DNA from: an uncultured Chitinophagaceae bacterium
Lineage (GTDB): Bacteria > Bacteroidota > Bacteroidia > Chitinophagales > Chitinophagaceae
Length of the DNA: 31,661 bases
Reading direction: 5' to 3'
Assembly (NCBI GenBank): GCA_964454275.1
Contig: CAYVXB010000001.1
Span: 1-31,661, forward strand
The notes under the pieces are model-generated. The model had not been told where the DNA came from. It did no database searches and saw nothing but the letters and a program-made list of their open reading frames with translations. The position numbers and the translations under genes were made by a program. This document shows, one piece after another, positions 25,215 to 29,445 of this stretch (positions within the stretch are counted from its first letter, which is position 1; the number at the start of each line of letters is the position of its first letter).

Positions 25215-26231
25215 ATGCAATCCATTAGCAACCATTTATTGAAACAGCTATTTTATATAGCAGTTATAATTGTATTGGGTATTATATTGTTTTGGCAGAT
25301 GGCCATATTCATTCCTAGTTTATTGGGGGCTATTACCTTTTATGTGCTCATGCGTAGAGCAATGCTTTTTTTAACAGAGAAAAAGAAATGGAAAAAGGGG
25401 CTAACTGCAATGGTTTTAATCTCCCTATCCTTTATTCTATTTTTAGTGCCTCTTATGCTGGTTGTCAGTATGTTATCATCTAAAATTGGCTACGGCATTG
25501 AACATTCTAACGAAATAATACAAATCATAAATAACAAAATAAGTATACTAGAAAGCAAACTAGGGTACACGCTGATAACGAAAGAGCATATGAGCGGTTT
25601 ATCTAGTTGGATAGCCAATAATTTACCCGCTTTATTAGGATCTACATTTAATTTTCTTACTATTATAAGCATCATGTATTTTATTTTATACTTTATGCTT
25701 ATGGGTAATCGAACAATGGAAAAAGATATATTGAAATATGTTCCGCTTAAAAACAAAAACGTATCCTTATTAAGTAAAAAATTTTTCAATATTATTTATT
25801 CCAATGCCATTGGAATTCCGCTTACAGCTATATTTCAAGGCATAGTGGCCACAATAGGCTATTGGGCTCTTGGGGTTAGTGACTTGTTTTTTTGGTTTGT
25901 AGCAACCTGCCTAACTTCTGTTATTCCAATTGTGGGAGCAAGTTTAACCTATATATCTATTTCGCTTATATTTTTTACAAACGGTGCAACATGGAAAGGC
26001 ATAGTATTACTGGGTTATGGCTTTGGAGTGGTAAGTACGTTGGATAGCTTTTTTAGGTTTGCCTTACAAAAAAGAATGGGAAATATTCATCCTCTTATAA
26101 CCTTATTTGGAGTAATTATCGGCATTAATCTTTTCGGGTTTATTGGAGTAATTTTTGGCCCATTGCTTATTTCATTATTTATTCTACTTATCCATATTTA
26201 CTCCAACGAGTTTGAACCCCACCAAGAATAA
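25215..26231 (+). CDS. AI-2E family transporter
   Basis: Multi-TM; IPIVGA, VSTLDSFFR and IHPLITLFGVIIGINLFGFIGVIFGPLL signature. Confidence 0.9.
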   Translation: MQSISNHLLKQLFYIAVIIVLGIILFWQMAIFIPSLLGAITFYVLMRRAMLFLTEKKKWKKGLTAMVLISLSFILFLVPLMLVVSMLSSKIGYGIEHSNEIIQIINNKISILESKLGYTLITKEHMSGLSSWIANNLPALLGSTFNFLTIISIMYFILYFMLMGNRTMEKDILKYVPLKNKNVSLLSKKFFNIIYSNAIGIPLTAIFQGIVATIGYWALGVSDLFFWFVATCLTSVIPIVGASLTYISISLIFFTNGATWKGIVLLGYGFGVVSTLDSFFRFALQKRMGNIHPLITLFGVIIGINLFGFIGVIFGPLLISLFILLIHIYSNEFEPHQE

Positions 26232-26295
26232 GCCTCTAGCATAACGTTGGGGTATTCTATTTGGCATTTGTTCATTTGTTATAGATATCTTTATT

Positions 26296-26340
26296 ATGCC
26301 GACCCTTCCTTCGTCAGAGTAAACTGCGGAGGCATCTCTC
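26296..26340. repeat. Degenerate REP-like GC-rich hairpin
   Basis: ATGCC...GGCAT outer stem enclosing CCTTCCTTCGTCAG-AGTAAA-CTGCGGAGG; resembles Bacteroidota REP elements as I recall them (no search run). Confidence 0.4.
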
Positions 26341-26439
26341 AAAATAATAAAACCCTTATATAGTCGGAGATTTCTAGCTATGGTAAAGATTTAAGTGCTG
26401 CTAAAAAAGAACAACTAGCCATGGCAGAAAAAGTATAAA

Positions 26440-26624
26440 ATGGTAAAATTGCTATGTTTCATGGCAAATTTGCCATTTTTTACATCCAACTATTATGTAT
26501 AGATAGCTTTTTTGCCATTTTTTTTAACAAATTTGCTATCCAAAATAGGATTTTATACGTTTACTCATAACAAATTTGCCATCCATCATAGAAAAATTGT
26601 TATTTAAGAAAGCAAAATTGCCGC
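26440..26624. repeat. Phased array of 16-bp palindromes, 21-bp period (consensus ATRGCAAATTTGCYAT)
   Basis: Units start at 26440, 26461, 26503, 26524, 26567, 26588 and 26609; the unit at 26461 (ATGGCAAATTTGCCAT) is a perfect palindrome. Confidence 0.85.
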
Positions 26625-26793
26625 AAATAACTACTGCTGGTTTTTTGCCTCTTCGATAACATACACCACACTGCTGATTTTGCAAACTAAAATATACGAT
26701 GTGTGATGAAACAACCTGCACTACAAAGCATAACAAGTCTATACTACTAAATTAGACTGCTCCGTTCCTAGCAGTAACGTAGAATATTAAAAT

Positions 26794-27438
26794 CTAAAGG
26801 ATGTAAATACTTAGTACTTGGCTAAGCACCCCAATGAATATTCCTAACCCTATTTCAAAAAGTGTATGCTCCTTCAATAACAATCGAGCCGTACAAACCA
26901 TGCCACACAATAATACAGCAATGCTAATGGGCAGTCCTATAGCCATTCCAGACCATATGGCTAAATGAACAAAAAAACTGACTGCTCCAGCCAATCCTAT
27001 TGCATGCATACTGATTTTAACAAAGCTGTTTAATACAAGTGCCGCAGCACTTGCTATAAAGATGCCTAATAGAAATTGAGTGAATGGCACAGGGTTATCT
27101 AACTGATTGCGAGAAATATAATATGCCCAAAAAAAGAATGTATTTGTTGCCACATAAGGAATAATGCGTTCCTTCTGGGTTTTAAGTTCAATAGATTGTA
27201 TAAATTTTAAACGCCATAATAGAAAAACAGTAATGGCAGGAAATAGCATGGTATTAATGCCTATGGCAATCAGTTTTTTTATTTTATCACTATGGGATAA
27301 GCCGATAAAAAAATAAGGTTGCACATACAATAAATAACAAGTAACAAATACTGGAATAAATAAAGGATGAAAAATATAAGATAACAGTTTCGATCCTACA
27401 TATAAAGCTTTTGAATGGGTGGCTTTTAATTCATTCAT
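26794..27438 (-). CDS. Integral membrane protein (PAP2-like superfamily), downstream of rpoN
   Basis: SYIFHPLFIP, KERIIPY, KISMHAIG and ARLLLKEHT motifs; 5-nt gap after rpoN. Confidence 0.7.
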   Translation of the reverse strand: MNELKATHSKALYVGSKLLSYIFHPLFIPVFVTCYLLYVQPYFFIGLSHSDKIKKLIAIGINTMLFPAITVFLLWRLKFIQSIELKTQKERIIPYVATNTFFFWAYYISRNQLDNPVPFTQFLLGIFIASAAALVLNSFVKISMHAIGLAGAVSFFVHLAIWSGMAIGLPISIAVLLCGMVCTARLLLKEHTLFEIGLGIFIGVLSQVLSIYIL

Positions 27439-27443
27439 AATTC

Positions 27444-28934
27444 TTAAAGTTCTTTACGTAAACGTGCTACCGATATATTTAATTGCTCTCTATATTTGGC
27501 TACTGTACGGCGAGCAATATTGTATCCTTTTTCTTGCAGCAATTCCATAAGCTGCTCATCGCTTAACGGTTTATGTTTATCTTCTGCTTCAATAAAATCG
27601 CTCAATATTTTTTTCACTTCTCTGGTAGACACTTCCTCACCTGATTCTGTACTAAGGGATTCACTAAAGAAAAATTTTAGCCGATATGTGCCAAATTCTG
27701 TTTGTACAAATTTGCTACTAGCCACTCTAGATATTGTTGAAATGTCTAGCCCTGTTTTTTCTGCAATAGTTTTTAAAATCAATGGCTTCAGTGTGGTTTC
27801 ATCGCCAGTGGTGAAAAACAAGTACTGATGCTCAATAATAGCATTCATAGTAGAAAGTAAGGTGTGTTGACGTTGCTTAATAATATCAATAAACCATTTA
27901 GCCGCATCTATTTTTTGTTTAATAAAAATAACGGCCTCTTTTTGACGCTTATCTTTTTTGGTGCCTTTATCATACTCTTTCAACATAGTACGATAATTAT
28001 CGCTCACCCTTAAATCGGGAGCATTTTTTGAATTTAAGCTTAGCTCAATTACACCATTGTTATTTACAATAAAAAAATCAGGGATAATATATCCTTGTGA
28101 TTCATTGCCCTCGCCCACACTGCTACCTGGTCGAGGATTTAAATGAATGACTTGATCAATAATATCTTTTAGCGCTTGATCGCTTAAAGAAAAGTGTCGT
28201 TGTATTTTGTCGTAATGCTTTTTAGTAAATATATCGAAGTGTTCTTTTAGTATTTGCATAGCAATATGTACATCTTTCCCTTCGGCTTGTTTACGTTGAA
28301 GCTGCAACAACAAACACTCTTGTAAATTACGGGCAGCTATGCCTGGAGGGTCAAATTGTTGAATTTTTTGAATAATTGTTTGCACTTCTGCTTCTGTAGT
28401 TTGTATATTTTGTCTAAATGCTAAATCATCTACAATAGCAATCGTATCCCTTCGTAGATAGCCATCATCATCAATATTACCTATAATTTGTTCGGATATT
28501 TTTTGTTGGTGCTCACTAAGAGATAGCATGCCCACCTGCGTTAACAAATGTTCATAAAAGGATCTTTCCATTTTCAGAGGTGTACTTTTCTGTTCTTCTG
28601 CTGCGGTGTAATTATCCTCTCGTAATTTATAATCTGGAAATTCATCATCTCCTTCTGCTATATACTCACTAATATCTATTTGTTCTGTAAGCACTTCTTC
28701 ATGCACATCCTCTATTTCACTACCCTCTTCTTCTGTTGATTCAAATTCTTCTACCTCCTCTTCAACACTATTTTCATTTTCTTCTCCAAGCTCCAATGCA
28801 GGATTTTCTTCTAACTCTTCCTTAATACGTTGTTCAAGATTTGCCGTAGGAATCTGCAACAATTTCATGAGTTGAATTTGTTGTGGAGATAGCTTTTGCA
28901 ACATCTTTTGTTGTAACCCTTGATATATTGCCAT
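27444..28934 (-). CDS. rpoN: RNA polymerase sigma-54 factor
   Basis: Gln-rich region I (QKLSPQQIQLMKLLQ), DISTISR HTH and RpoN box ARRTVAKYREQL. Confidence 0.98.
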   Translation of the reverse strand: MAIYQGLQQKMLQKLSPQQIQLMKLLQIPTANLEQRIKEELEENPALELGEENENSVEEEVEEFESTEEEGSEIEDVHEEVLTEQIDISEYIAEGDDEFPDYKLREDNYTAAEEQKSTPLKMERSFYEHLLTQVGMLSLSEHQQKISEQIIGNIDDDGYLRRDTIAIVDDLAFRQNIQTTEAEVQTIIQKIQQFDPPGIAARNLQECLLLQLQRKQAEGKDVHIAMQILKEHFDIFTKKHYDKIQRHFSLSDQALKDIIDQVIHLNPRPGSSVGEGNESQGYIIPDFFIVNNNGVIELSLNSKNAPDLRVSDNYRTMLKEYDKGTKKDKRQKEAVIFIKQKIDAAKWFIDIIKQRQHTLLSTMNAIIEHQYLFFTTGDETTLKPLILKTIAEKTGLDISTISRVASSKFVQTEFGTYRLKFFFSESLSTESGEEVSTREVKKILSDFIEAEDKHKPLSDEQLMELLQEKGYNIARRTVAKYREQLNISVARLRKEL

Positions 28935-28964
28935 AGTTATTGGTGTGTTATTTATGTAAAACGC

Positions 28965-28976
28965 TGTAAATTTACA
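28965..28976. promoter_or_regulatory. 12-bp palindrome TGTAAATTTACA between divergent rpoN and receiver genes
   Basis: Perfect palindrome containing TAAATTTA, a -7-like variant, on both strands. Confidence 0.4.
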
Positions 28977-28995
28977 AACAATAATACAATATCAT

Positions 28996-29445
28996 ATGCT
29001 AACATACGTTGAGAAAAATGTTCCCTCCACATCTAAAGAAGATGATATGCAAAATAAAAAGCATACACTAAAAATATTATCTGTCGATGATGATGAAATG
29101 AATCAATTACTTTTTACTTCTTTATTGTCTAAATTGGGATACACTTGTGCAACAGCAAAAAACGGCAAACAAGCTGTTGACATGGTTTTAAAAGAAGAGT
29201 TTGATATTATTTTTATGGACATATATATGCCTATAATGGATGGCATAGAAGCTACTTTTCAAATAAGAAACGCCCTGAAAACAAAACAAAAGCCCATTAT
29301 TGTTGCCTTATCTGCTAATAATTTTGATGATGAAAAACAAAAATGTACCGTCGCTGGAATGAACGATTTTATGCAAAAACCCTATAGATTAGTAACAATG
29401 GAAGAACTACTTGATAAATGGAATAAGGAATTGCAAAAAAATTAA
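28996..29445 (+). CDS. Stand-alone response-regulator receiver (CheY-like)
   Basis: ILSVDDD, FMDIYMPIMDG (phospho-Asp), IVALSAN, MQKP; alternative start ATG 29047. Confidence 0.9.
   Translation: MLTYVEKNVPSTSKEDDMQNKKHTLKILSVDDDEMNQLLFTSLLSKLGYTCATAKNGKQAVDMVLKEEFDIIFMDIYMPIMDGIEATFQIRNALKTKQKPIIVALSANNFDDEKQKCTVAGMNDFMQKPYRLVTMEELLDKWNKELQKN

Follow-up and report, generated by a model that had tools for sequence, protein, structure and literature searches.

The stretch of DNA analysed here, called the window throughout, has a length of 31,661 nucleotides and represents the initial 31.7 kb of a 45-kb contig (C1). The contig belongs to the metagenome-assembled genome of an uncultured Chitinophagaceae bacterium from wastewater and activated sludge (here G000; 2.19 Mb, 33% GC, 216 contigs, 94.6% complete). 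Two convergent genes in the window, encoding an AI-2E family transporter and a hypothetical protein of 214 amino acids, are separated by a gap of 562 bp (26232-26793) that contains an array of short palindromes. A previous sequence-only reading had described both genes as ending in this gap and the gap as the longest noncoding stretch of the window. Both statements were confirmed. The same reading had taken the 214-aa gene for PAP2-like, an identity that was not recovered, as no Pfam family matched the protein at E 0.001 or better. Its relatives were found in a congeneric genome (G001) alone and none were found beyond the genus. Annotation of the contig with Pfam, from window position 11.2 kb onwards up to its end at 45 kb, revealed housekeeping genes only, including those for ThrRS, PBP2, RodA, L21, an E1 dehydrogenase, alternative complex III and cytochrome oxidase. 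No rep or partition genes were detected in this range. The features of the locus are collected in Table 1.

Table 1. Features of the gap and its flanks, with further copies of two elements. Positions refer to the window unless a genome and contig are given.
Feature	Position	Strand	Evidence and remarks
AI-2E family transporter gene, terminates at the gap	25215-26231	+	Pfam PF01594, E 1e-36
Putative terminator-like hairpin right after the transporter gene	26234-26252	+	Consensus scan: 7-bp stem and T-rich tail
Truncated MITE-A copy	26259-26375	+	Retains the left inverted end and ~117 bp but lacks the right end; identity of 78-86% to at least nine other genome loci
Leader, ~60 bp, followed by units 1-2	26378-26439	+	Aligns to G001:C117 and metagenome contig L059, a non-orthologous locus
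Long hairpin/cruciform of units 1 and 2	26433-26483	.	24-nt arms, 83% complementary, 3-nt loop
Degenerate tandem repeat, nine slots, 21-bp period	26440-26624	.	Motif search, repeat finding, autocorrelation
Good palindromic units (starts)	26440, 26461, 26503, 26524, 26567, 26588		
Decayed units, "empty" slots (starts)	26482, 26545		
Weak unit (start)	26609		4 mismatches to ATRGCAAATTTGCYAT
Internal duplication, 43 bp	26508-26591	+	26508-26548 versus 26551-26591, 73% identical
Dispersed repeat B	26669-26784	+	3 genome copies; 10 bp between its end and the stop codon of the 214-aa gene
Gene of 214-aa hypothetical protein, terminates at the gap	26794-27438	-	ORF; 93% identical ortholog in G001
rpoN (sigma-54)	27444-28934	-	Pfam Sigma54 AID, CBD and DBD domains
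Complete MITE-A copies	G000:C5:21301-21475, C10:19107-19261, C78:305-479, C2:24795-24949		
Further copies of the G078 array	G078:C3 ~73.8 kb, C3 ~150.9 kb, C8 ~139 kb		

Seven 16-mers with start-to-start distances of 21, 42, 21, 43, 21 and 21 had been reported for the gap. All seven were present, the seventh as a weak match, and the distances were correct. When the window was searched for ATRGCAAATTTGCYAT with up to three mismatches, nine matches were obtained, six of them within 26440-26603. By chance, 2.44 matches are expected across the 31.6-kb window, and nine matches were reached by none of 100 shuffled sequences. The sites had further been described as a pair, an empty slot, a pair, a weak slot and a triplet. 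This spacing was upheld, but the supposedly empty slot at 26482 and the weak slot at 26545 are decayed units (site-matrix scores of -13.7 and -0.8, respectively), the latter still being similar to site 3. The repeating unit is composed of a 16-bp palindromic core and a 5-bp A/T spacer, arranged head to tail. Autocorrelation of the array region had maxima at lags of 21, 42, 43 and 64 (z ~3-4.3), revealing higher-order periods of 42/43 and 64 bp. Given the 21-bp register over nine slots, these longer periods and the 43-bp duplication, the array is a tandem repeat and not a set of separate sites. The 43-bp internal copy would also indicate local duplication as the mode of growth.

The units of the array were only 60-75% alike among themselves. 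Across units the right half-site, WTTGCYAT, was more conserved than the left one: its T-T-G was constant in 7/7 units, while the mirror positions on the left were variable. Since the left half is less conserved than the right, the array unit can be read equally well as a direct repeat or a palindrome. Column-wise heterogeneity over the seven sites was not significant in a hand calculation of low power. Units 1 and 2 together build an inverted repeat of 51 nt, which was likewise detected by repeat finding. Window positions 26347-26858, including the whole array, are jointly covered with 0 differences by contigs from independent wastewater studies, and a contig from a fourth study covers 26565-27100 with seven differences. 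No length variants of the array were seen among the four metagenomes. The array was thus recovered in independent wastewater metagenomes and is no assembly artefact.

A position-weight scan of the whole genome (2.19 Mb) detected a cluster of palindromes at 26440-26624 only. The sequence-only reading had proposed such a scan. Outside the array, 13 matches reached a score of at least 15, compared with six for the reversed control, and 12 of the 13 lay inside coding sequence. The motif therefore occurs elsewhere at background frequency and almost exclusively in coding sequence, and a regulon motif was rejected. Likewise, REP/BIME palindromes would require tens to hundreds of intergenic copies, and this candidate was dismissed because palindrome clusters exist at one locus only. 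A BLAST search with array and leader gave no match elsewhere in G000.

The gap as a whole proved to be a mosaic. In a BLAST comparison with its own genome, the 562 bp split into separate repeat pieces, and the gap is the longest of the window because repeats piled up there. Next to the transporter gene lies a truncated copy of a miniature element, MITE-A, and the other MITE-A copies start to diverge from the window copy at 26375. Intact MITE-A measures 155-175 bp and has 23-bp inverted ends (GGCATTGTTAAATTACTATAGAT) with 8-bp AT-rich target duplications, a combination that we take to be reminiscent of the IS6 family. At least seven complete and many partial copies exist in G000 and the element is also present in G001. 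An autonomous parent element of MITE-A was not found in the search. A candidate parent IS on C70, defined by a pair of ends 2.6 kb apart, was discarded, as this segment contains pnuC- and nadR-like genes and no transposase.

Repeat B occupies the other end of the gap. Its two other copies (G000:C26:18347-18464 and G000:C128:1118-1230) are like the window copy ~116 bp in length, with 77-78% identity between copies. On C1 and C128 the repeat ends 7-10 bp past the stop of a minus-strand gene in the same orientation, and on C26 it ends 118 bp past the stop. The depth of repeat B was raised in metagenome contigs, and a comparison of repeat B with Rfam gave no match. It could be a 3'-end element, a terminator or a small RNA.

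We compared the locus with the sister species represented by G001. The transporter and the 214-aa protein of G001 are 95 and 93% identical to their counterparts in G000. Past both stop codons, the G001 DNA is unrelated to the G000 gap, contains zero sites and maps to other G000 contigs. The repeat island lies at a point of rearrangement between the two known species of the genus. The sequence-only reading had named a lack of conservation of motif and phasing in relatives as evidence against its proposal, and such conservation was largely absent, both at the orthologous gene ends of G001 and in ~200 genomes of the family. In 120-200 other Chitinophagaceae genomes, the search gave no array and no motif clusters. 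As a side observation, the rearrangement between G000 and G001 coincides precisely with the 3' ends of the transporter and 214-aa genes, where the G001 contigs break. The loci concerned are G001:C251 and G001:C11 versus window 26232-26793, and G000:C77:6379-6897.

A copy of the leader was found in G001 at a different place, upstream of trpS, and it is followed there by two good and two weak units in phase. A metagenome contig (L059) has the same arrangement. By hand count on the alignment, 43 of 45 bases are shared by G000 and G001 over ~45 bp of leader. The G001 copy abuts a truncated IS5-type element and a second IS5-family transposase. The IS5-type elements around it, some of them truncated, carry HTH_Tnp_4 or DUF4096 and DDE_Tnp_1 domains. 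No motif site was present in the trpS upstream region of G000. The number of array units is 7-9 in G000 versus 2-4 in G001. The hairpin of the first two units keeps 12-13 of 16 pairs in G001, with zero compensatory changes. Aligned relative to the leader, the hairpins of the two species are 87% identical when one is reversed and ~70% in direct orientation, and the palindromic two-unit segment may have been flipped between the species. The better fit of the reverse orientation was seen for window 26433-26483 against positions 1233-1281 of the G001 locus (L010, G001:C117), loop included.

Tandem repeat finding over the whole genome revealed a second array with a 21-bp period at G000:C38:245-455. 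It consists of ten direct units with the core ATGRCWATTTTG followed by a T-run, and it has super-periods of 42 and 63 bp. Its core is related over 12 nt to that of the window array. A scan of G000 for this 12-nt half-motif gave phased clusters at C1 and C38 only. The C38 array lies downstream of thymidylate synthase and adjoins a truncated MITE-A copy, a GC-rich hairpin repeat and other dispersed repeats. In G001 an array of the C38 type (on G001:C54) has three units, compared with ten in G000, and is located 22 bp outside an intact MITE-A end. Thus arrays of both types are longer in G000 than in G001, which indicates that copy number is labile. With respect to phased pairs of the shared core, G000 was an outlier among 151 genomes of the family, having 10 compared with at most three.

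One genome of another Chitinophagaceae genus (G078) contains a 21-bp array of eight units, the core of which is (A)ACAACAWTTTT. It is located between a molybdopterin dehydrogenase and an amidohydrolase gene (L094, G078:C5:101668-101835). At least four dispersed copies are present in G078, each with the leader AAAAGCCGCCAGATTGTCCA and then ~8 units of 21 bp, amid REP/MITE-like repeats. Every one of these copies has its own spacer signature. These signatures point to concerted evolution inside the arrays. As the search that led to G078 had used this very pattern, the match of the cores is circular and may be chance. The informative feature of G078 is the combination of a leader and a 21-bp array amid mobile debris, not the sequence of the core.

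The period and the palindromes of the window array invite comparison with known binding sites. LytTR regulators, the classic readers of 21-bp direct repeats, bind 9-bp direct repeats with a 12-bp spacer. The period fits such sites, but a PF04397 protein is missing from G000, while five of 14 named control genomes were matched, and LytTR sites were rejected. The neighbouring rpoN prompted a search for a sigma-54 promoter, the consensus of which is TGGCAC-N5-TTGC with GG and GC 12 bp apart. In ATGGCAAATTTGCCAT the two are 9 bp apart, and the candidate was abandoned. A Bacteroidetes sigma-A promoter, with TAnnTTTG as its -7 box, was rejected as well, since this box is absent from both strands of 26150-26850. 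Searches against the families of Rfam 15 gave 0 matches in the window at gathering score, and the hairpin look-alikes that appeared were all below threshold (E 0.001 or worse). The sole match to the core in the literature was the luxXc box of Xanthomonas XccR, which contains GGCAAATTTGCC (PMC10013830). The outer bases of that LuxR-type box are CTG/CAG, however, and we took the match as a coincidence.

Based on these observations, we favour the interpretation that the array is a lineage-specific, MITE-associated minisatellite that changes by slippage or unequal recombination and has no locus-specific function (probability roughly 0.6). The seven palindromes are then the better-preserved units of a fast-changing 21-bp tandem repeat among mobile-element debris. 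Such an array would have reached the gap with, or beside, mobile-element DNA. It would lengthen and shorten via slipped-strand mispairing or unequal recombination between units, and hairpins formed by the palindromic units would help unit gain and loss. A role specific to the locus, be it in replication, in segregation or in controlling the neighbouring genes, is probably lacking. Some observations count against this interpretation. The units are poorly alike, yet the array does not vary among four independent metagenomes and all seven units keep the T-T-G of their right half. More decay might be expected of an old neutral repeat, so that the core is possibly under constraint. The array also does not lie within a complete multi-copy MITE, and neither a tail nor a second inverted end is present. 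The sequence-only reading had mentioned the relic of a mobile-element end as one of its alternatives. This came closest to the present interpretation, as the array lies between mobile-element fragments and is of the MITE-associated minisatellite kind, and the reading as a whole was supported in this part. Its main proposal, a platform on which a protein for chromosome organisation, segregation or replication is loaded, was unsupported: DnaA boxes as well as par and rep genes are missing and the array is absent in G001.

The idea of cooperative loading can also be put in a broader form, in which each palindrome would be bound by a dimer, all on one side of the helix, and the array, resembling iterons, centromeres, operators or transposase ends, would be a site, still in use or retired not long ago, that belongs to a mobile element or to a genus-specific protein. 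The 16-bp dyad symmetry phased at two helical turns, the constant TTG in the right half of the units and the adjacency to mobile-element ends agree with it, and being the sole palindrome cluster in the genome is what a centromere- or origin-type site is expected to be. Also in favour are the arrays on another contig and in another genus, which have a related 12-nt core and differing spacers, although the cross-genus match has the circularity noted above. However, not one rep, par, resolvase or regulator gene was found within 45 kb, where all neighbours are housekeeping genes, and no regulon exists, the other matches being at background level and in coding sequence. In addition, G000 is without a LytTR protein and the orthologous G001 locus is without the array. 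We consider this explanation fairly unlikely. The narrower candidates of a plasmid or phage origin, a centromere or an operator were rejected because no such genes are nearby and viral contigs had no clusters of the palindrome. In the viral contigs ~28 isolated perfect-palindrome matches were counted, about the number expected by chance. A chromosomal replication origin, a terminus trap or a nucleoid-organising site is very improbable, even though the gap is long and AT-rich with phased repeats and the contig skew turns a few kilobases away. The gap has no DnaA box at up to one mismatch, and a site of this kind should be conserved but is missing from the orthologous region of G001 and from 200 genomes of the family. 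Along the 45-kb contig, cumulative GC skew reaches its turning point (a minimum) at ~29-32 kb, 2-5 kb from the array. Hence an inflection at the array itself, which the sequence-only reading had considered, was not observed, and the turn coincides instead with the switch of gene orientation at the rpoN/response-regulator junction. Genes are mostly on the minus strand to the left of this junction and on the plus strand to the right. The skew turn could be an origin-like switch or simply reflect gene orientation. The junction near the skew minimum is divergent (window 28934-28996 and beyond).

At the level of RNA, the stem-loops might act as bidirectional terminators or 3'-UTR stabilisers, or the leader and the first hairpin might constitute a small RNA. 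Units 1 and 2 would give a stem of ~22 bp between an A-run and a T-run, site 2 was terminator-like in the consensus scan, and the two mismatches of the stem become G-U pairs on the plus strand, the sense strand of the transporter gene. Folding was better than that of shuffled sequences on both strands (z -2.8 and -3.4), but any array of palindromes outfolds its shuffles by construction. Moreover, the stems of the array are weak and AT-rich, and the transporter gene already has its own putative hairpin upstream. The G001 hairpin is poorly kept, with uncompensated losses, and apparently flipped versus the leader. Neither an Rfam family nor a TAnnTTTG box was found in the gap. Taken together, an RNA-level role is quite improbable. 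A decayed coding sequence of heptad repeats, which had been named as an alternative, is scarcely credible. A length of 21 bp does equal seven codons, and a minus-strand ORF of 66 codons overlaps the right part of the array. Over 284 bp, however, each of the six frames contains at least four stops, tblastx against the genome matched only the region itself and the 66-codon ORF has no Pfam match. Palindromic units are also unexpected in coding repeats.

Among known systems, the minisatellites of two Porphyromonas gingivalis MITEs, BrickBuilt and PgRS, appear to be closest to the window array, sharing its kind and not its family. BrickBuilt is composed of a leader, 1-23 tandem units of 23 nt and a tail (Klein et al. 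2015, PMC4596501). All copies are intergenic and many are partial, the number of units rises and falls, and conserved positions cluster in the first half of the unit (PMC4596501). A genome has 19 copies with a common leader and a tail with the IS5-type inverted ends GAGACCTTTGCA (PMC4596501). MITEPgRS/MITE464 of the same species contains internal tandem repeats of 41 nt (PMC4596501). The comparison between BrickBuilt and the window array concerns architecture, not unit sequence. Both occur in Bacteroidota, are intergenic and consist of spacerless head-to-tail units of about two helical turns (23 nt in BrickBuilt, 21 nt here), with one half of the unit conserved and a non-repetitive leader in front of the array. 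In both, unit number differs between close relatives and copies are often partial and beside other mobile elements. In contrast to BrickBuilt, the window array has no tail, and an end resembling GAGACCTTTGCA was not found anywhere in the window. Only two related arrays exist in G000 (C1 and C38), a count from a fragmented assembly in which repeats are possibly unassembled. The leader is common to a single G001 locus (C117/L059), and the unit is palindromic. MITEPgRS/MITE464 likewise has a tandem repeat borne by a MITE, and its period of 41 is close to the 42/43-bp super-period here. It differs in being a multi-copy element with repetitive flanks, and its unit is, as far as known, unrelated.

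Two further comparisons lead away from Porphyromonas, the first to plasmids and the second to a streptococcal repeat. The sopC centromere of plasmid F and the iterons of R6K and RK2 are arrays of short sites at ~21-22 or 43 bp. Each sopC unit has a 16-bp inverted repeat that is bound by a dimer, and such sites are unique in their replicon. These plasmid-borne arrays lie beside their own par or rep genes and have well-conserved units. The window array resembles them in its short sites, its 16-bp inverted repeat and its uniqueness in the replicon. It differs in that the units are decayed, the locus is a chromosomal one among housekeeping genes and no par or rep gene is near. BOX elements of Streptococcus pneumoniae are modular and present in high copy, with end modules on either side of a repeated internal box. 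The window array shares with VNTRs and BOX elements its non-coding nature, variable unit number and modular build. Unlike it, BOX is a high-copy element and not palindrome-phased, and the BOX model offers no explanation for the preferred 21-bp period.

The minisatellite interpretation has consequences for annotation. Taken by itself, the array would be repeat DNA of an ordinary kind, selfish or neutral, and annotating it as an origin, a centromere or an operator would be unwarranted. Repeat islands of this type mark rearrangement junctions and contig breaks in metagenome-assembled genomes of the group. Any novelty would lie less in the locus itself than in the question why such arrays of the clade keep a 21-bp register, as slippage alone does not account for a clade-wide preference for exactly this period. 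Among 23 non-coding tandem repeats of G000 with periods of 17-45, eight or nine have a period of 21 or 42, compared with an expectation of ~1.6 for evenly spread periods. We regard it as unlikely that this register is imposed across the clade by a protein or a repair process reading two helical turns. If so, for example, a nucleoid protein or a transposition-accessory protein would load side by side on 21-bp arrays, and the palindromic array would be one loading platform of the register-imposing protein. Unrelated non-coding repeats of Chitinophagaceae and other Bacteroidota would then all settle at 21 or 42 bp. A well-defined palindromic core and the difference in copy number between sister species make arrays like the one in the window suitable for testing any mechanistic cause of the period. 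As regards the remaining tandem repeats of G000, those with periods of 21 or 42 have unrelated units (e.g. C127:725-894, C11:26471-26680 and C52:8630-8696), and the neighbouring periods of 19-23 and 41 are rarer than 21 and 42.
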